Shown here piece by piece: positions 11,677-45,851 of a DNA stretch of 64,000 nt. The DNA comes from a candidate division WOR-3 bacterium (GTDB lineage Bacteria; Hydrothermota; 32-111): NCBI GenBank assembly GCA_037481815.1, contig JBBFKX010000001.1, positions 32,001 through 96,000 of the forward strand, written 5' to 3'. Under the pieces are notes generated by a model, which was not told the DNA's origin, made no database searches, and saw only the letters and a list, made by a program, of their open reading frames with translations. Every line of letters begins with the position of its first letter. Position 1 is the stretch's first letter. Made by a program: the position numbers and the translations under genes.

Positions 11677-11773
11677 ATTAAAAGATTCTAAATTTATTTT
11701 TAATTTACTGCATTTAAAAAAGTAGAAATTTTTTTAATAAGTAGGGATTCAAAAAGAATTTGAAATGAAAAAA

Positions 11774-11797
11774 GTCAAAAAGTCAAGCACCGTCCCC
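11774..11797 (-). repeat. 24-bp repeat copy 1 (GGGGACGGTGCTTGACTTTTTGAC on the minus strand)
   Basis: Plus strand GTCAAAAAGTCAAGCACCGTCCCC is the exact reverse complement of 45828-45851 and a 22/24 match to 18250-18273. Confidence 0.9.
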
Positions 11798-11946
11798 GAA
11801 ATATACTTATAATTTTTTTTATCCAGAATTTTTACATAGAAATATTGTTGAAAAGTAAAAATATTTTTAATATAATAAAACTAAAAATGAAAAGTAAAAA
11901 AACATTTTAAACTATTGATTAGAATGAATTTTTTGGATGAAATCAA

Positions 11947-14643
11947 ATGAAATTAACTTTTGAGTCAAATTTAGATTTTCAATTAAAGGCAGTCAATTCT
12001 ACAGTGAATCTTTTTGAGGGACAACAAAGGGGTGCCGGTACTGTTAAGTTTACCTTTAATAAAAATGATCCTGAAGAATTATTTTCGGGAATAAATAGTA
12101 TTGGTAATCGTCTTGCAATCTCAAATGAACAAATTTATAAAAATCTTTCCGAAATACAGAAAAATAATGAAATAAGTGTTGTCACAGAAGAAGAATTTAA
12201 AGATAATGGATTGAATTTTACCGTAGAAATGGAAACCGGTACGGGTAAAACTTATGTGTACCTTCGAACTATTTACGAACTTAATAAAAAATATGGCTTT
12301 AAAAAATTCGTCATCGTCGTACCTTCTATTGCTATCCGGGAAGGAGTTTTGAAAAACCTTGAAATTACCTTTGAACATTTTCAAAATCTTTACGATAATG
12401 TGCCCGTAAATTATTATGTTTATGATAGCAGTAAAGTTTCTTCTTTGCGTTCTTTTGCAACCAATAACAGCATTGAGATTCTGGTAATCAATATTGATTC
12501 CTTTGCTAAAGATGAAAATATCATCAATCGTCCGAATGATAGATTAAGCGGTCTGGAACCTATAAAATTTATTCAAGCCACAAATCCCATTGTGATAGTG
12601 GATGAGCCGCAAAATATGGAGACTGAAAAAAGAAAAAATGCGATTAACAGTTTAAATCCACTATGCACGCTTCGTTATTCAGCAACTCATAAGAATTTGT
12701 ACAACCTTGTCTATAGCCTAAATCCAGTAAAAGCATATGATCTTGGTCTTGTAAAACAAATTGAAGTGGACTCCGTAGTGGAAGAAAATGCGCATAATGA
12801 TGCTTACATTGCCGTTGAAGAAATCAAATCTCAGAAAACAAAAATAACAGCACGGCTATCTATCTATTCAAGCGTACCCAATGGAATTATAAAAAAAAGC
12901 ATTACCGTAAAAGTGGGTGATGACCTTTTTCAATTGTCCGGGAATTATCAACCATACAAAGATAGATTCATAGTTGAAGAAATAGATGTAGCCAATCAAA
13001 CCATTACCTTTTCCAATGGTATCACTTTGAATAGCGGCTCATCACGCGGCGGAATGGCCGATGAAATTATGCATTTTCAGATACAACGAACCATAGAAGA
13101 ACATCTCAAAAAAGAACTAAAATTATACAAACAAGGCATCAAAATACTTTCACTATTTTTTATTGATCGTGTTGCCAGTTATCGCTACTACGATGAACAG
13201 GGAAATCCACAAAAAGGAAAAATTGCACAATGGTTTGAGGAGGAATATAGAAATAGTATAAATAGAAATGAATTTTTAGAACTAAAAAAACTTTTTCATC
13301 CTGATGATAAAATAGACATAGAAAAAATCCATAACGGCTATTTTTCGCAAGACAAAAAAGGAAGACTCAAGGATACTCGCGGAGAAAGTGAAGACGACCT
13401 TAATACCTATGATTTAATAATGAAAGATAAAGAAAAATTGCTAGATATACAAACACCATTACGTTTTATTTTTTCTCATTCTGCTTTGCGTGAGGGCTGG
13501 GACAACCCGAATGTATTTCAGATCTGTACACTAAACGAAACAAAATCAGAACTCAAAAAACGGCAGGAAATTGGTAGAGGACTCAGACTTGCAGTCAATC
13601 AAAACGGACAAAGGATTTATGATAAAAACATCAATCGATTGACAGTAATTGCCAATGAATCGTATGAATCTTTTGCCAAACAATTACAAACCGAGATTGA
13701 AGAAGAGTGTGGTGTAAGCTTTAAAGGTAGAATCAAAAACAAACGCGAACGAATTGCCATCAAATACCGCAAAGGTTTTGAAGTCGATCCAAAATTCCTT
13801 GAAATATGGGAAAAAATTAAATATAAAACTCGATACAGAGTGGAATATCAAACCACAGAATTAATAAATAATGCTGCTGAAGAGATTCAATTTTTGCCAC
13901 CGACTCCGTCTCCATCGATCAAAGCCACAAAAGTAAAAATGGATATTACCGACGAAGGTATCGATACATCGTTAGTGGGCGAAAGACGGGAAAAATATGG
14001 AAATAAACATTTATGGCTATTACCTGATATGATTGAATATATTCAGCAAAAAACAGAACTGACAAGAAATACTATCAAAGAAATTCTTGATAAAGCCAAT
14101 CGCTGGAACAATTTTTTTGTCAATCCACAATATTTTTCTGATCAATGTGTGTCTGTTATCAAAAGAACACTTGCAGAATTTTTAGTAGATGGCATCAAGT
14201 ACGAAAAAATTAGCGGACAATACTATGAAATGCGTCTTTTTGAAATGCAAGAACTGGAAACCTATCTGGATACTTTTACCTTCCAAGTGAACAACAAAGA
14301 AAAAACCATTTATGAAGAATATATTCCTCTGGACTCAAGCGTAGAAAGTCAATTTGCAAAAGATTGCGAAACAAGTGAAAATGTGGAGTTCTATTTCAAA
14401 CTTCCCGGTTGGTTCAAAATTCCAACACCGATTGGTTATTACAACCCCGACTGGGCAGTAGTTTTGAAAAACGAAAAGAAAATCTACTTTGTAGCCGAAA
14501 CCAAAGACACAGGTGGCGATAAAATCGATATCTCAAAACTTCATCCCGATGAACAGATGAAAATCAAATGTGGCGAAAAACATTATAAAGTGTTTAATGG
14601 TGTGGAATATAAAGTAGTGAAAAGGGTGAGTGATTTGATATGA
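11947..14643 (+). CDS. res: Type III restriction-modification system endonuclease subunit (Res)
   Basis: VEMETGTGKT Walker A, DEPQ, YSAT, ALREGWDNPNVFQIC, QEIGRGLR, and C-terminal YNPDW...AETK PD-(D/E)xK nuclease. Confidence 0.95.
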   Translation: MKLTFESNLDFQLKAVNSTVNLFEGQQRGAGTVKFTFNKNDPEELFSGINSIGNRLAISNEQIYKNLSEIQKNNEISVVTEEEFKDNGLNFTVEMETGTGKTYVYLRTIYELNKKYGFKKFVIVVPSIAIREGVLKNLEITFEHFQNLYDNVPVNYYVYDSSKVSSLRSFATNNSIEILVINIDSFAKDENIINRPNDRLSGLEPIKFIQATNPIVIVDEPQNMETEKRKNAINSLNPLCTLRYSATHKNLYNLVYSLNPVKAYDLGLVKQIEVDSVVEENAHNDAYIAVEEIKSQKTKITARLSIYSSVPNGIIKKSITVKVGDDLFQLSGNYQPYKDRFIVEEIDVANQTITFSNGITLNSGSSRGGMADEIMHFQIQRTIEEHLKKELKLYKQGIKILSLFFIDRVASYRYYDEQGNPQKGKIAQWFEEEYRNSINRNEFLELKKLFHPDDKIDIEKIHNGYFSQDKKGRLKDTRGESEDDLNTYDLIMKDKEKLLDIQTPLRFIFSHSALREGWDNPNVFQICTLNETKSELKKRQEIGRGLRLAVNQNGQRIYDKNINRLTVIANESYESFAKQLQTEIEEECGVSFKGRIKNKRERIAIKYRKGFEVDPKFLEIWEKIKYKTRYRVEYQTTELINNAAEEIQFLPPTPSPSIKATKVKMDITDEGIDTSLVGERREKYGNKHLWLLPDMIEYIQQKTELTRNTIKEILDKANRWNNFFVNPQYFSDQCVSVIKRTLAEFLVDGIKYEKISGQYYEMRLFEMQELETYLDTFTFQVNNKEKTIYEEYIPLDSSVESQFAKDCETSENVEFYFKLPGWFKIPTPIGYYNPDWAVVLKNEKKIYFVAETKDTGGDKIDISKLHPDEQMKIKCGEKHYKVFNGVEYKVVKRVSDLI

Positions 14644-15290
14644 ATAGCCAATTAGAAGATATAAAATTATACAGAATGACTCACATAGAAAACATACCAC
14701 ATATTTTACAACATGGTATTGCGCATAAAAATTCAAAGTTTGCTAATGCAGAATATAAAAATATTGGGGACTTTTCATTGATATCAGCGCGTGAAAGAAA
14801 AACAATAAATATTACAAATGGTAATAATAATATCATAAAGACAATAATCTTAGGAGATTTCATCCCTTTTTATTTCAATGTAAAAATGCCCATGCTTTAT
14901 GTTATCCAGCATGGAGGCAACTTTACCACAAAAACTTCATCATCGGACATAGTTTACCTGGTATGTTCCCTTTATAAAATAGTTCAATTAGATAATATTG
15001 AATGCTACTTTTGTGATGGGCATGCCACTGATAACTTAACAACTTTTTATGATAGTAGTTTTATTAAGCAAATAGGAAATATTATTGATTGGACGGCAGT
15101 CACATCTCAATACTGGGGCGGTGAAAATAATTTAGAGGTAAAAAGAAAAAAACAGGCTGAATTTTTAGTAAAGGGAGATTTACCTGTTGAAGTAATTGAA
15201 TATTTTATTTGCTATGATGAGATAGCAGAGGAAAAACTAAAAAAATTTGGTGTTAAATCAATCAGGATAGATAAAAATGCCTATTATTGA
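14640..15290 (+). CDS. darT: DarT ssDNA thymidine ADP-ribosyltransferase toxin (DUF4433)
   Basis: YRMTHIENIPHIL..G, DFIPFYF...PMLY.I, F.DGHA, and KKQAEFLV carrying the catalytic Glu. Confidence 0.92.
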   Translation: MNSQLEDIKLYRMTHIENIPHILQHGIAHKNSKFANAEYKNIGDFSLISARERKTINITNGNNNIIKTIILGDFIPFYFNVKMPMLYVIQHGGNFTTKTSSSDIVYLVCSLYKIVQLDNIECYFCDGHATDNLTTFYDSSFIKQIGNIIDWTAVTSQYWGGENNLEVKRKKQAEFLVKGDLPVEVIEYFICYDEIAEEKLKKFGVKSIRIDKNAYY

Positions 15291-15301
15291 GGAGGTTGAT
15301 T

Positions 15302-16354
15302 ATGATAAAATTCACAACAGGAAATATTCTTGAAAGCGAGGCACAGGCTCTGGTTAATACTGTTAACACCGTTGGAGTTATGGGAAAAGGCATTGCTTTG
15401 CAATTCAAAAAATCCTTCCCGGATAATTTTAATGCCTATGCAAAAGCCTGCAAAAGTAAGGAAATTGAAATTGGTAAAATGTTTGTATTCAAAGAAAATA
15501 CCCTTTCGGGCGAAAAAATCATTATCAACTTCCCCACCAAAAAAGATTGGCGAAAACCCTCTGAATACGAATATATTGAAAAAGGACTGGACGACCTGAT
15601 TCGTGTTATCAAAGAATATAATATCAAAAGTATTGCTATCCCCCCTTTAGGCGCTGGAAGTGGCGGACTCTTGTGGGAAAAGGTAAAAACTATTATTCAA
15701 AATAAATTAGGCAGTTTAGATATAGATATTTTCGTTTATGAACCCTCAAGAGAAATACAGGAAAAACTAAAAAAAGAAAGAGTAAAACTAACAGATGCAA
15801 GGGCTTTGATGCTGTATGTGCTTTATGAACTGGTACGACAGGGCGAATATGTATCCGAATTCTCTGCTGAAAAAGTTTGTTATTTCCTTCAAAAATTTGG
15901 TGCGGAGGAATATTTCAAACTAACATATAAACCCAACTTTTATGGTCCTTATTCCGGGAAGGTTAGATATGTGCTTAACTATTTAAATGGTAGTTACATC
16001 ATGGGATATAGCGATATAACTAAAAAACCTTTTGAACCCCTTTTACTTATAGCCGATCGATACGATGAAGTGAACCGATACATACAATCCAATAAAAAAT
16101 TACAAAATATTGCTCAAAAAACCATACAATTTCTTGATGGTTTTTTTTCCGATTTTGCACTTGAACTATTGTCCACAGTTGACTGGATAATGAAAGAAAA
16201 ACAAACAGATAATTTTGATGTAATTAAACAAGAAATCACAAACTGGAACTACAAAAAACGAAGTAAATTCTCTAATGACAAATACATTCAAATAGCCATT
16301 GAACATATAAAAAATTTTCATAAAAGGATAACCCTATGGACGGACAAAACTTAG
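15302..16354 (+). CDS. darG: DarG macrodomain DNA ADP-ribosyl glycohydrolase antitoxin
   Basis: GNILES.AQALVNTVNTVGVMGKGIALQFK, INFPTKKDWR, SIAIPPLGAG.GGL; C-terminal domain with YGPYS and LELLSTVDW. AGGAGG RBS precedes ATG 15302. Confidence 0.93.
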   Translation: MIKFTTGNILESEAQALVNTVNTVGVMGKGIALQFKKSFPDNFNAYAKACKSKEIEIGKMFVFKENTLSGEKIIINFPTKKDWRKPSEYEYIEKGLDDLIRVIKEYNIKSIAIPPLGAGSGGLLWEKVKTIIQNKLGSLDIDIFVYEPSREIQEKLKKERVKLTDARALMLYVLYELVRQGEYVSEFSAEKVCYFLQKFGAEEYFKLTYKPNFYGPYSGKVRYVLNYLNGSYIMGYSDITKKPFEPLLLIADRYDEVNRYIQSNKKLQNIAQKTIQFLDGFFSDFALELLSTVDWIMKEKQTDNFDVIKQEITNWNYKKRSKFSNDKYIQIAIEHIKNFHKRITLWTDKT

Positions 16355-18201
16355 ACATAAAAAAAGACATTCTCAACAAACTCAAAGAACTTATTCCCAA
16401 TTGTTTTACCGAAGGTAAAATCGATTGGGAAAAACTCAAAGTATTTTTGGAAGATAACATTGAATTTCAAAACGAACGCTATCACCTTAATTGGGCTGGC
16501 AAAACCGATGCCTTTCGTTTGTTGCAGTCGCCTACATACAAAACATTAAAACCCTGCCGTGAAGAAAGCGTTAACTTTGACGAAACCGAAAATCTCTTTA
16601 TAGAAGGCGATAATCTGGAAGTGCTGAAAATTTTGCAAAAATCCTACTTTGGTAAAATCAAAATGATATACATAGACCCGCCTTACAATACGGGAAATGA
16701 TTTTATCTACAAAGATGATTATACAGAAACCCTTGCCGGATACAAAAGAAAAGTTGGCGATGTGGACGAAAACGGCAATGTTACCCGTGCAGAACTTTTC
16801 CGTAATACAAAAGAAAACGGGCAATACCATTCTAATTGGCTTACTATGATGTACCCCCGACTTTTTCTTGCCCGCAACCTATTGCGTGATGATGGCGTAA
16901 TCTTTGTAAGCATCGACGACAACGAAGTCCACAACCTGCGACTTATGATGGATGAAATTTTTGGAGAGGAGAATTTTATTGTTAATGCTATTTGGGAAAA
17001 AGTTAAAATTAGAAAAAATTCTGCGGTCTGGTTTTCTGATTCTCATGATCATATCCTCATTTATGTTAAAAATAAAGAATTATCAAAAAGAAATTTATTA
17101 CCAAGAATAGATACTAGAATGTATAAAAATCCAGACAATGATCCAAGAGGACCATGGATACCAATACCTATACATGCTAACCATAAATATGATGCAAATT
17201 ATAAAATTGTAAAGCCTAATGGTATAGTTTTAGAAAGACCCAAAAATAACTATTGGAGGTTAAGTGAAAAAAAATTTAATGAATATGTAAAAGATAATAG
17301 AATATGGTGGGGCGAAGGATCTAGTTATCCTATGATTAAAAAGTTTTTATCAGAGGTTCAACAAGGGTTAGTTCCCAAAAGTATATTTTATTATGATGAA
17401 GTTGGAGGTAATCCTCATGGTGATGCGGAATTAAAAAAACTATTTGAAGGTAAAAAAATTTTTGAAAATCCAAAATGTATTAAATTAATAAAAACATTTT
17501 TACAAATTTCCACTTCTCCCTCCGACCTTATCCTTGACTTCTTCGCCGGCTCCGGCACCACTGCCCATGCGGTGATGGAACTCAACAAAGAAGATGGGGG
17601 AAATCGTAAGTTTATCCTTGTCCAACTACCCGAACCCACAGCCCCCGATAGTGAAGCATTCAAAGCAGGCTACAAAACCATTGCCGATATTGCCAAAGAA
17701 CGCATCCGCCGTGCCGCAAAGAAAATTCAGGGTGAACTCGATGAAGAAAAAAAGAAAAAAGGAGAAGAACTGCCATTAGAACCAACCCAACAAAAAAAAT
17801 TAGACCTTGGTTTCAAAGTATTTAAACTGGATGAAAGCAACTTCAAACAATGGCGCCCCTTTGTGCCTGAGAGTGAAGAAGAGATAAAACAAGCTGTACT
17901 GGATTTTACCGAAAATATCAAGTTTGAAGCTACTGTGGAAAACATTCTTTATGAACTGATACTCAAAAACGGCAAAAAACTTACAGACGAAATTGAAAAG
18001 AAAAATGGATATTATGTTGTAAACAACAATGAACTTGTTTTGCTACTGGAAAGTGTGGAAAAATCGGTAATAGACGAAGTATTATTGCTTAAACCTCAAA
18101 AGGTAGTGGCACTGGATAAGTTATTTAATGGCAATGACCAATTAAAAACAAATACTGTGTTGCAATTTAGAGATGAAGGAATAGAGTTTAAGAGTGTATG
18201 A
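16336..18201 (+). CDS. mod: Type III R-M adenine methyltransferase subunit (Mod)
   Basis: ERYHLNWAGK, NLFIEGDNLEVLK, YIDPPYNTG, HSNWLTMMYPRL, ILDFFAGSGTTAHAV, DLGFKVFKL. Confidence 0.95.
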   Translation: MDGQNLDIKKDILNKLKELIPNCFTEGKIDWEKLKVFLEDNIEFQNERYHLNWAGKTDAFRLLQSPTYKTLKPCREESVNFDETENLFIEGDNLEVLKILQKSYFGKIKMIYIDPPYNTGNDFIYKDDYTETLAGYKRKVGDVDENGNVTRAELFRNTKENGQYHSNWLTMMYPRLFLARNLLRDDGVIFVSIDDNEVHNLRLMMDEIFGEENFIVNAIWEKVKIRKNSAVWFSDSHDHILIYVKNKELSKRNLLPRIDTRMYKNPDNDPRGPWIPIPIHANHKYDANYKIVKPNGIVLERPKNNYWRLSEKKFNEYVKDNRIWWGEGSSYPMIKKFLSEVQQGLVPKSIFYYDEVGGNPHGDAELKKLFEGKKIFENPKCIKLIKTFLQISTSPSDLILDFFAGSGTTAHAVMELNKEDGGNRKFILVQLPEPTAPDSEAFKAGYKTIADIAKERIRRAAKKIQGELDEEKKKKGEELPLEPTQQKKLDLGFKVFKLDESNFKQWRPFVPESEEEIKQAVLDFTENIKFEATVENILYELILKNGKKLTDEIEKKNGYYVVNNNELVLLLESVEKSVIDEVLLLKPQKVVALDKLFNGNDQLKTNTVLQFRDEGIEFKSV

Positions 18202-18249
18202 CGATGAGAAAAAAAATAAATAAAAAGACCATTACATTTATAGAATTTT

Positions 18250-18273
18250 GGGGACGGTGCTTGACAATTTGAC
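18250..18273 (+). repeat. 24-bp repeat copy 2 (GGGGACGGTGCTTGACAATTTGAC)
   Basis: 22/24 identical to the other two copies; inverted relative to copy 1. Confidence 0.9.
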
Positions 18274-18457
18274 ATTTTTTTACAAGTTATATTAAAATTT
18301 AAACTTACATTTAAAATAAAAAATTTTTTCTTTTCATTTTATTAAGCAAAAATGTAAAGTATTTTTGAATTAATGAAAAATCAAAATTAACAAAATTTTT
18401 AATATTGATAAAACTTTATTTTTTGTTAAAATAAAAAGTTAAAATTAAGGAGGTTTG

Positions 18458-20272
18458 ATGTATATACTTGGATTAAATATAGGGCATGATGCTACAGCGA
18501 CACTTTTAAAAGATGGAAGGATTATTGCTGCAGTAGCAGAGGAAAGGATTTCAAGGGTAAAATTTCATTTCGGGTTTCCATATGGTTCTATAAAGGAATG
18601 TATTAGAATAGCAAAAATAGATGGAAAAGATATAAAAAATGTTGTTCTATCTTTTGAAAATGATATTTTGAGAAGTCCCTTTCATTATACTGATCTTATA
18701 GTGAAAAGAAGTGGAACAATTGACCCATCAAATGAGATAGATAATAGAAAAAAGTTTGATACTATAAAAGAAATATTGTACAGAAAAATTATTGGAGAAA
18801 AAAAGTACTGGAAACTTGCATCAGAATATGCTAAAAAATCTATAACTGATGCTTTGAAAAAGTGTGGTTTGGTTGAATTTACACTTGAATCAGTTAATCA
18901 TCATCTTTGTCATGCTGCTTCATGTTATTATGAAGGTGGGAAAAATAAAGCACTGATTATAACTATGGATGGAGCAGGTGATGGACTTTCTGCAACAGTT
19001 TCAATTGGAGAAGATGGTAAGATAAAAAGGATTCTTGAAGTAGAGGATATATATTCTGTTGGAAGGTTTTATTCAGCAATAACAAAATTTCTTGGATTTA
19101 AAAGAAATAGACATGAAGGGAAGATAACAGGCCTTGCAGCATACGGTAATCCTAATAAACTTTACGATAAGTTCAAACAAATGATAGATATAACCCCAGA
19201 TGGGAAAAGTTTTTATTCACCACTTGCTGGTAATCTAAAAGGAGATTCTTTGAGGTTAAAGCAGTTTAAAGATTTTTTGAAAGGAAAATATTATGGACAT
19301 AATTATACAAACCTTTATCTTGAATTTTTGAAGAAAAATTGTTCAAATGAATCAAAAGAGGATATTGCAGCAGCAGCACAGAAATTAACAGAAGATTTAG
19401 TTGTAAAATTTATAGAACCACATATAAAAAATACAGGCATAAAAGATATAGTTCTTGCAGGTGGTCTTTTCTCAAACGTAAAAGTGAATCAGAGGGTTCT
19501 TGAAATTGAAGGTGTTGAATCAGTTTTTATCCATCCAAATATGGGTGATGGTGGAACATCGACAGGAGCATGTTATATTAAATGGGCAGAAGAGGTTGAA
19601 AAGAAAGGAGAAAAATTTTTACCATTTACCATTGATAATGTTTACTATGGGCCTGAATATAATGATGATGAAATTTTGAAAGTTTTAAAAGATTTTGAAA
19701 GTAAAGTTGAATTTAGAAAAAGTGATAATATCGTTGAAGAGACAGCGCAAATGATAAAAGATAAAGTTGTTGTTGGCTGGTTTCAAGGGAGAATGGAATA
19801 TGGTCCGAGGGCTCTTGGAAACCGTTCAATTCTATTTGATCCTACTGACAAAAAGATAAACGATTGGTTAAACAAAAGATTAAAAAGAACAGAGTTTATG
19901 CCTTTTGCTCCATCCTGTATTTATGAGGAAGCAAAAAATGTTTTTGAGAATTTCGAAAAGGGAAGTTATCCTTCTTATTTTATGACTATAACTTTTAATG
20001 TAAAAGAGGAATGGAGAAAGAAAATTGAAGCTGTTAACCATGTAGATAATACCGCAAGGCCTCAGACTGTCAAAGAAAATCAAAATCCTTTATACTATAA
20101 ACTTTTGAAAAGGTATAAAGAATTGACAGGACTTCCGCTTTTTGTTAATACAAGTTTTAATATGCATGAAGAACCTATACTTTGTTCACCTGTTGATGCT
20201 GTGAGATCGCTCCTTAATAACTGTGTTGATATTCTCGTTATAGGTAATTACATAGTCAAGCAGAAAAAATAA
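18458..20272 (+). CDS. Carbamoyltransferase, NodU/CmcH family
   Basis: ILGLN.GHDA, AEER.SR.K, HH.CHAAS, DGAGD, HEGKITGLA.YG, GRMEYGPRALGNRS, RTEFMPFAP, HVDNTARPQ, NTSFN.HEEP. Confidence 0.92.
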   Translation: MYILGLNIGHDATATLLKDGRIIAAVAEERISRVKFHFGFPYGSIKECIRIAKIDGKDIKNVVLSFENDILRSPFHYTDLIVKRSGTIDPSNEIDNRKKFDTIKEILYRKIIGEKKYWKLASEYAKKSITDALKKCGLVEFTLESVNHHLCHAASCYYEGGKNKALIITMDGAGDGLSATVSIGEDGKIKRILEVEDIYSVGRFYSAITKFLGFKRNRHEGKITGLAAYGNPNKLYDKFKQMIDITPDGKSFYSPLAGNLKGDSLRLKQFKDFLKGKYYGHNYTNLYLEFLKKNCSNESKEDIAAAAQKLTEDLVVKFIEPHIKNTGIKDIVLAGGLFSNVKVNQRVLEIEGVESVFIHPNMGDGGTSTGACYIKWAEEVEKKGEKFLPFTIDNVYYGPEYNDDEILKVLKDFESKVEFRKSDNIVEETAQMIKDKVVVGWFQGRMEYGPRALGNRSILFDPTDKKINDWLNKRLKRTEFMPFAPSCIYEEAKNVFENFEKGSYPSYFMTITFNVKEEWRKKIEAVNHVDNTARPQTVKENQNPLYYKLLKRYKELTGLPLFVNTSFNMHEEPILCSPVDAVRSLLNNCVDILVIGNYIVKQKK

Positions 20273-31760: not shown

Positions 31761-32143
31761 TTTTGCTCAGGATTCAATGCTTTGTTTATCCTTGAAACAA
31801 GGTCTTTTAAGTTGAAAGGTTTAACAACATAATCGTTGATTCCTATGTTGAAACCTTTATTTTTATCTTCAACATTGGATTTTGCTGTGAGAAAGATTAT
31901 AGGAATATTTTTTGTGTTTTCGTTCTGTCTTAGATTCGCTGCGAGTTCAAACCCATCCATTACAGGCATCATTATATCTGTTAAAACAAGATCAACATGT
32001 TCCTTGTTTATAATATCGATCGCTTCCTGCCCGTTGTGTGCTTTGATGATATCGAAACCGTTTTGTTTCAAAGTGAATGCCATTATATCGACGAGAAATA
32101 GATCATCATCAACTATCAACAGGGTTTTCTTTCTTTCTTCCAT
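31757..32143 (-). CDS. Single-domain response regulator (receiver)
   Basis: LIVDDD, LTDIMMPVMDG, IIFLTA, YVVKPF. Confidence 0.95.
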   Translation of the reverse strand: MEERKKTLLIVDDDLFLVDIMAFTLKQNGFDIIKAHNGQEAIDIINKEHVDLVLTDIMMPVMDGFELAANLRQNENTKNIPIIFLTAKSNVEDKNKGFNIGINDYVVKPFNLKDLVSRINKALNPEQK

Positions 32144-45827: not shown

Positions 45828-45851
45828 GGGGACGGTGCTTGACTTTTTGAC
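45828..45851 (+). repeat. 24-bp repeat copy 3 (GGGGACGGTGCTTGACTTTTTGAC)
   Basis: Identical to the reverse complement of 11774-11797; lies 11 bp after the stop of the FG-GAP gene. Confidence 0.9.

Follow-up and report, generated by a model that had tools for sequence, protein, structure and literature searches.

Defence genes nested within the operon of another defence system are established for Hma, BREX, DISARM and Type I restriction-modification (R-M) hosts (Payne, Hughes, Fineran and Jackson 2024, 10.1101/2024.01.29.577857). The toxin-antitoxin pair DarTG2 occupies a comparable place in Type I R-M operons, at a site described as a likely recombination hotspot (PMC12255303), and DarTG protects on its own after transfer to E. 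coli (PMC12255303); here and below, statements on the cited papers refer to the portions of them available to us. We describe a Type III R-M operon with the gene order res-darT-darG-mod from a candidate division WOR-3 bacterium (GenBank assembly GCA_037481815.1, contig JBBFKX010000001.1). The analysed stretch, called the window, comprises 64,000 nucleotides (nt; contig positions 32,001 to 96,000), and the operon lies at window positions 11947-18201. Comparison with its relatives indicates that the gap between mod and res is a general slot for more than 12 kinds of unrelated cargo with fast turnover, of which DarTG is the one carried here.

A complete DarTG pair between res and mod

The open reading frame (ORF) listing gives four tightly joined genes on the plus strand. 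The first, res (11947..14643, +; 898 amino acids, aa), encodes the Type III restriction subunit, with a superfamily 2 (SF2) helicase-like ATPase and a C-terminal PD-(D/E)xK nuclease. Its stop codon overlaps the start of darT (14640..15290, +; 216 aa), the gene for the single-stranded DNA (ssDNA) ADP-ribosyltransferase toxin, as ATGA at 14640-14643. The darT TGA (15288-15290) is directly followed by GGAGG and, at 15302, by the ATG of darG (15302..16354, +), which encodes a macrodomain ADP-ribosyl-DNA glycohydrolase antitoxin with a predicted C-terminal DarT-binding domain. The TTG at 15287 that the ORF listing offered as the darG start is not likely to be used, because of the GGAGG after the darT stop and the ATG at 15302. 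The last gene, mod (16336..18201, +; 621 aa), encodes the Type III N6-adenine methyltransferase; its ATG lies 19 nt inside the 3' end of darG, and the homology to relatives, which begins at 16335, supports this start. A motif scan found no terminator-like site within the block (0 versus 4.0 expected).

Each protein was compared with known families and structures. Res is called as REase_III by PADLOC (E=0), matches Pfam ResIII (8.6e-18) and RE_endonuc (5.8e-34), and aligns with EcoP15I Res (4zcf_C, 2.1e-61) through the nuclease motif. Its motifs GTGKT, DEPQ and PD(835)...E851-T-K853 are invariant in five relatives, and it possesses both the SF2 ATPase motifs and the C-terminal PD-(D/E)xK nuclease by which a Type III Res is recognised. 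DarT (PF14487, 1e-42; PADLOC DarT, 1.4e-51) matches the DarT proteins of Thermus (7omv, 2.1e-14) and M. tuberculosis (7yk3_A, 2.7e-11). Residues R51 and E174, the latter within QAEF, are invariant in 61 homologues (alignment of representatives), and E174 aligns with the mutated position E160 of Thermus DarT 7omv; the DUF4433 fold, the catalytic glutamate and the conserved arginine that mark a DarT are all present. DarG (PADLOC DarG, 6.5e-123; Macro domain present) matches Thermus DarG 5m31 over its macrodomain (3.8e-53) and keeps K80, N22, K29, W83 and G119 as in that protein, the residues named as mutated by Jankevicius et al. in the available part of PMC5179494; the catalytic K80 and the ligand-binding residues of the macrodomain are accordingly in place. 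Further along, residues 184-336 match chain 7yk3_B, the DarG of the M. tuberculosis DarT-DarG complex (2.5e-11), a match in sequence only. DarT and DarG are both of usual length and domain content, without an extra module. Mod (PADLOC MTase_III, 2.4e-207; PF01555, 4.7e-35) matches 6k0w_B (3.3e-82) and EcoP15I Mod (4zcf_A, 4.9e-70). Its DPPY at residues 114-117 stands ahead of FAGSGTT near residue 403, the beta-class arrangement of motif IV before motif I with a variable recognition domain between them.

We conclude that all four genes are, as predicted from their sequences, intact, with every expected catalytic motif present. The content of the slot is best explained as a complete DarT/DarG module, putatively of the thymidine type and the macrodomain class. 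The preliminary description of this DNA, made from its letters, had already called res, darT, darG and mod, judged their catalytic motifs intact, listed the three couplings (the ATGA overlap, a darG ribosome-binding site at the darT stop and the 19-nt darG/mod overlap) and remarked on the reversed res...mod order. Pfam and PADLOC bear out the gene calls; the motifs hold in the sequence, the PDB matches and the alignments, the couplings stand at the junctions, and the gene order is as it had been read.

The mod/res junction holds diverse cargo

A Res-centred metagenome scan, of which the best 80 of 581 relatives were analysed, returned both mod and res in 58 loci, Res alone in 20, and no callable Res ORF in two. 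Among the 58 loci with both genes, mod and res are adjacent in 27 and separated by intervening ORFs in 31. We removed L186 from the cargo count as a decayed, adjacent res-first locus and set aside L134, which has just two short opposite-strand ORFs between mod and res. In the 29 clear cargo loci every cargo gene is co-oriented with mod and res. The cargo abuts res closely, with a gap of at most 12 nt in 22 of the 29 and a 4-nt overlap in 13.

Pfam named 36 of the 52 cargo ORFs, nearly all as defence-type. The classes found in the mod/res slot are Schlafen AlbA_2 proteins, with or without an 870-880-aa ATPase; Type IIG Eco57I/MmeI-like enzymes; a C5 methylase with a GHKL ATPase and Vsr; DUF6978 with DUF1828/1829; YhcG nuclease; SIR2 with HerA; GmrSD-N with AAA_15; DUF3800; OLD and other AAA_15/21 ATPases; SMODS cyclase (CBASS); and PIN_12. 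Co-oriented nesting with cargo that varies among related hosts is embedded defence in the sense of Payne et al. (2024), and this is the pattern observed.

The orthologous system of genome G001, which belongs to the same genus, illustrates the exchange. It is likewise res-first (Res 77% and Mod 65% identical to those of the window), and a 249-aa gene stands in the place of darTG. Homology between the two systems runs through res to its stop codon and resumes from the start of mod. The 249-aa gene (L023 6729-7478, minus strand) matches no Pfam or PADLOC family, and in the Atlas it falls in unnamed clusters only, with members of 244-257 aa in several phyla; we regard it as a candidate for a new defence gene. 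Cargo ORFs without a meaningful Pfam family also occur in L147 (3087-5355; 449+259 aa), L119 (6669-7001; 111 aa), L150 (1186-1692; 169 aa), L152 (6291-7001; 237 aa), L160 (6244-7002; 253 aa) and L162 (5972-6916; 315 aa), and these are further candidates. Residence in the slot thereby offers a form of guilt by embedding, which turns unannotated cargo into candidate defence genes.

Beyond the slot itself, two res-first relatives (L028 13603-18883 and L023 1447-4781) carry a C5 cytosine methylase and a double-GHKL ATPase of about 700 aa after mod. The mod-first locus L116 has the C5 methylase/GHKL ATPase pair together with Vsr inside the slot, and the window lacks this module.

Cargo changes quickly and at gene boundaries

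On a Res tree of 59 rows, at least 31 changes of cargo state are required. Almost identical Res genes accompany different cargo: L103, with DarTG, and L127, with a Type IIG enzyme, are separated by a Res path length of 0.04, and L146 and L147, again with different cargo, by 0.03. Cargo is present in 27 of the 32 rows of the window's Res clade (21 of 26 without the six rows added through DarT or kinship) and in seven of the 27 rows outside it.

The edges of the exchanged segments were located by blastn in seven pairs of loci. In five (L103/L127, L146/L147, L144/L145, L111/L129 and L086/L179) homology breaks at the mod stop and at the res start; each of the remaining two includes one cargo-free locus. 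A second homology break in these pairs falls in the mod recognition domain. The window shows this too: the mod genes of the window, G001, L028 and L186 are 72-82% identical at both ends and non-homologous in the middle. Homology of mod to the three relatives ends at 16977 and is back at 17451-17512, which delimits a variable target-recognition segment at 16978..17450 (+). This central variability is evidently the usual target-recognition-domain swapping of Type III systems.

Two loci hold gene fragments. In L120 (2464-2664), a 31-residue DarG remnant (61% identical) immediately precedes a cargo gene of 245 aa, which is followed by res; it looks like the scar of a former darTG cargo whose place another gene has taken. 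L028 has, further downstream of its intact system (18932-20223), a C-terminal and then an N-terminal fragment of mod. Their identities to the Mod of the window are 84% and 81%, and both lack the recognition domain; they could be a silent store for the exchange of recognition domains, or remnants.

DarTG was captured repeatedly by Type III operons

The distribution of darTG was followed by a DarT-centred scan of species-representative genomes, with a six-sequence alignment as the query; the best 80 of 362 relatives were analysed. Neighbours of these loci were typed from same-strand ORFs only (120 by Pfam, 78 by PADLOC); 88 minus-strand ORFs of the 166 listed and ORFs shorter than 130 aa were left out. 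Five of the 80 loci have darTG in a Type III operon, and the other 75 are close pairs outside such operons. One of the five, L028, from a Cyclobacteriaceae metagenome-assembled genome, has the identical order res-darT-darG-mod, with identities to the window of 79% for Res, 74% for DarT, 89% for DarG and 66% for Mod. The two loci are collinear at 80.7% DNA identity over 11937-16977, that is, from 10 nt before res into mod. L080, L089 and L103 have the order mod-darT-darG-res, and L086 reads darT-darG-res on a contig that starts with the last 78 nt of mod.

Elsewhere, L036 has darTG in a Type I operon, with hsdM, PDC-S02 and hsdS upstream and the N-terminus of HsdR downstream, and in L064 the pair comes immediately 3' of a gene for a Type IIG enzyme. 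The majority of the remaining pairs are stand-alone, with unrelated or other defence genes around them. A DarG search of plasmids returned 113 records; of two contexts inspected, one on a Haliscomenobacter plasmid beside BREX and one on a Zymomonas plasmid beside Dam and DGQHR genes, neither is in a Type III operon. In the DarG and DarT trees (74 rows) the Type III-embedded pairs occur at three separate positions, beside stand-alone pairs. These trees indicate that darTG entered Type III slots at least three times.

The operon is probably foreign to its genus

A search of 40 relatives, five of them genomes of the genus itself, found no DarT. Over res and mod the GC skew stays at about 0.0-0.05, versus 0.19-0.35 in the flanks. 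The block is best explained as a horizontally acquired Type III R-M operon, foreign to the genus. Its neighbours are msrAB/osmC upstream and a carbamoyltransferase gene downstream (Pfam/PADLOC). In G001 and G002 the interval between msrAB and the carbamoyltransferase gene (L024 929-8062; L025) holds three genes and no cassette; the three encode large proteins with C-terminal sorting domains of the type IX secretion system (LVIVD, FG-GAP repeats). The insertion site of the cassette is thus variable within the genus. Contigs from a run of another study span res/darT/darG (14453-16224) and darG/mod (16203-16858), each with 0 differences. Because such contigs bridge the junctions and the block in L028 is collinear, we do not regard the arrangement as an artefact of assembly.

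DarTG as a probable independent passenger of a cargo slot

The arrangement of the four genes can now be interpreted. We consider it probable, though well short of certain, that the locus is a Type III operon with a cargo slot in which DarTG travels as an independent, co-inherited passenger, without a physical or signalling link to the restriction enzyme. A single promoter upstream of res would give one transcript; translation of darT would be coupled to that of res, and the strong ribosome-binding site of darG would yield DarG in excess. The Mod2-Res enzyme would cleave unmethylated incoming DNA, in the Type III manner by an ATP-dependent reaction of Mod-bound Res with two unmethylated sites in inverse orientation. 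DarTG would form a separate layer of abortive infection, in which thymidines in ssDNA are ADP-ribosylated once control by DarG fails; the modification, which in DarTG systems is reversed by DarG, would arrest growth. The two systems would be tied by co-inheritance and co-expression, a layered defence that we find plausible, and cargo would be exchanged probably by homologous recombination in the conserved res and mod, which would act as homology arms.

Several observations weigh against this interpretation. The very tight coupling, with the res stop overlapping the toxin start and the mod start inside darG, also fits functional wiring. In addition, a single Type III lineage (Res 61-80% identical) carries darTG in its slot in res-first and mod-first loci alike, which could reflect selection for the pairing rather than chance capture. 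The counts themselves come from best-80 scans, often of short contigs with crude ORF calls, and six cargo-bearing rows of the Res tree came in through DarT or kinship, which biases them.

Among the alternatives, the best placed is that DarTG serves mainly to stabilise an acquired R-M cassette by addiction and adds little phage defence, an idea that Jankevicius et al. (2016; PMC5179494, in its available part) put forward for DarTG in Type I operons. The foreign origin of the cassette agrees with it. Nevertheless, R-M systems are addictive by themselves, the remaining cargos of the slot mostly belong to other classes than toxin-antitoxin pairs (SIR2-HerA, CBASS, Type IIG, Schlafen/ATPase pairs), and DarTG systems are shown anti-phage defences (cited in PMC12255303). 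We regard this explanation as unlikely.

A further reading makes the Type III operon the trigger line: shut-off by the phage or a block of the enzyme would tip the DarT/DarG balance, and the second layer would fire. It is suggested because the cargo is translationally chained, as seen in the 4-nt cargo-to-res overlaps counted above (13/29) and in the overlap of the res stop with the toxin start of the window. If true, this Type III clade, which spans phyla, would form a modular platform that combines restriction with an interchangeable suicide or backup device, with res and mod as homology arms for cassette exchange. We give this reading only a small chance of being correct.

The preliminary description had proposed DarT as a second line behind the Type III enzyme, tied to it on the model of PrrC. 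Such a guard would be restrained by, or would sense, the Type III enzyme and fire when a phage inhibits or evades restriction. A toxin gene does lie within an R-M operon here, like prrC in EcoprrI; the junctions are translationally tight, and within one Type III lineage DarTG is found again between the two subunit genes in either order. Other evidence speaks against it. According to the available text of Payne et al. (10.1101/2024.01.29.577857), PrrC is almost exclusively embedded; an effector of the PrrC type would thus be found almost only in an R-M host, unlike darTG, whose 80 nearest pairs include 75 outside any Type III operon. The slot is general and swaps many unrelated cargos quickly, DarTG was captured at least three times, and neither DarT nor DarG carries an additional module. 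The proposal fares poorly on this evidence, and we consider a guard of this kind improbable. A synteny check of res-darT-darG-mod, also called for in the preliminary description, found the arrangement again in L028. The independence of the two modules is suggested by comparative patterns only.

Biochemical crosstalk, in which methylation by Mod and ADP-ribosylation by DarT act on related DNA sites and one modulates the other, was raised as a possibility for Type I by Jankevicius et al. (2016; PMC5179494, in the same part). The recognition segment of mod, however, differs among the window, G001 and L028, though L028 has the same darTG block; no fixed pairing of specificities has therefore been kept. 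Together with the cargo diversity of the slot, this leaves crosstalk very improbable. Chance juxtaposition or an assembly chimera, to which a metagenome-type assembly with 17 tiny contigs might point, is hardly credible given that contigs from an independent study run across each of the three junctions (0 differences at two) and that an 81%-identical collinear block exists in another lineage.

Sequences flanking the operon

A dispersed repeat of about 31 nt, perfectly conserved, brackets the cassette. Its upstream copy (16-mer core GTCAAGCACCGTCCCC) lies at 11768..11802 (+) and an inverted downstream copy at 18245..18279 (-), 44 nt after the mod stop; a repeat search aligned the two as an inverted pair with 35-nt arms, 89% complementary. 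A third copy in the window is at 45828-45843 (-). The core occurs in 36 copies in the 1.58-Mb genome versus 0 in reversed-pattern controls. Four of five other genomes of the genus hold 26-40 copies, and in G001 a copy precedes res by 173 nt. Within the three large contigs every copy is intergenic, with unique flanks, and nine to ten copies form one array that separates small accessory genes (G000:C3:273478-279129). Thirteen of the 17 tiny contigs (C4-C20) hold one copy each, mid-contig. The repeat matches nothing in Rfam, forms no hairpin by itself and has no transposase close by. A mark of an insertion sequence or TnpB element was considered and rejected, as the genes between copies are heterogeneous and none is a transposase. 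Contigs of four runs gave joints such as 11797>18319 and 11805/18280, whose sides extend over only 22-31 nt, within the repeat; we take these matches as repeat-driven and not as signs of excision or inversion. The repeat may serve as a site of recombination or of regulation and mark regions that vary.

A candidate promoter, TTGAAA-17-TATAAT, is located at 11848..11876 (+), 70 nt upstream of res, with the top score of 11 of 12. In this AT-rich DNA the promoter scan is uninformative, with 31 sites seen versus 30.9 expected from shuffles. A look-up of sequencing runs listed no RNA run that contains the stretch, which bears neither way on expression. Neither flanking intergenic region, both of which were examined, contains a small regulator ORF. 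Rfam found two tRNAs only across the whole window, and nothing at the flanking repeat or in the operon.

Comparison with described systems

The closest described relatives are the DarTG2 pairs in Type I R-M operons, as in the RRDM island of enteropathogenic Escherichia coli (EPEC; PMC12255303, and PMC5179494, in their available parts). There, too, a co-oriented darT-darG lies between subunit genes, and the pair is also of the macrodomain, thymidine type. The present locus differs in its host, which is Type III (Mod/Res) rather than HsdMSR, and in its res-first order; the flanks of the operon that were examined contain neither the RptR-type repressor nor the M48 peptidase of the EPEC island.

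PrrC in the Type IC locus of EcoprrI is likewise a toxic effector gene inside an R-M locus. It is nearly always found embedded, under the control of the R-M enzyme, whereas the darTG subfamily of the window is mostly stand-alone and shares its slot with unrelated cargos. The comparison carries a caution, that such nesting is not always the mark of a bespoke guard system.

A literature search on DarT or DarG together with Type III restriction found no paper linking them, in agreement with the earlier remark that this Type III arrangement is not known to have been characterised. The embedded defence of Payne et al. has the same co-oriented nesting of independent systems in the operon of another system, and its cargo shares with the Type III slot the ABC/AAA ATPase pairs, GmrSD-like proteins and PD-(D/E)xK nucleases; the available main text, supplements apart, mentions neither Type III R-M as a host nor DarTG. 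Classical Type III systems (EcoP15I, EcoP1I) have the same Mod and Res architecture and motifs, with mod before res and the genes abutting, whereas here res comes first and 1.7 kb of cargo stands between. DarTG in Type I operons was known, and Type III as its host is an extension of known embedding: the new host is a clade of Type III R-M systems, widespread and spanning phyla, in which defence cargo appears to be exchanged at the mod/res junction with gene-precise boundaries.

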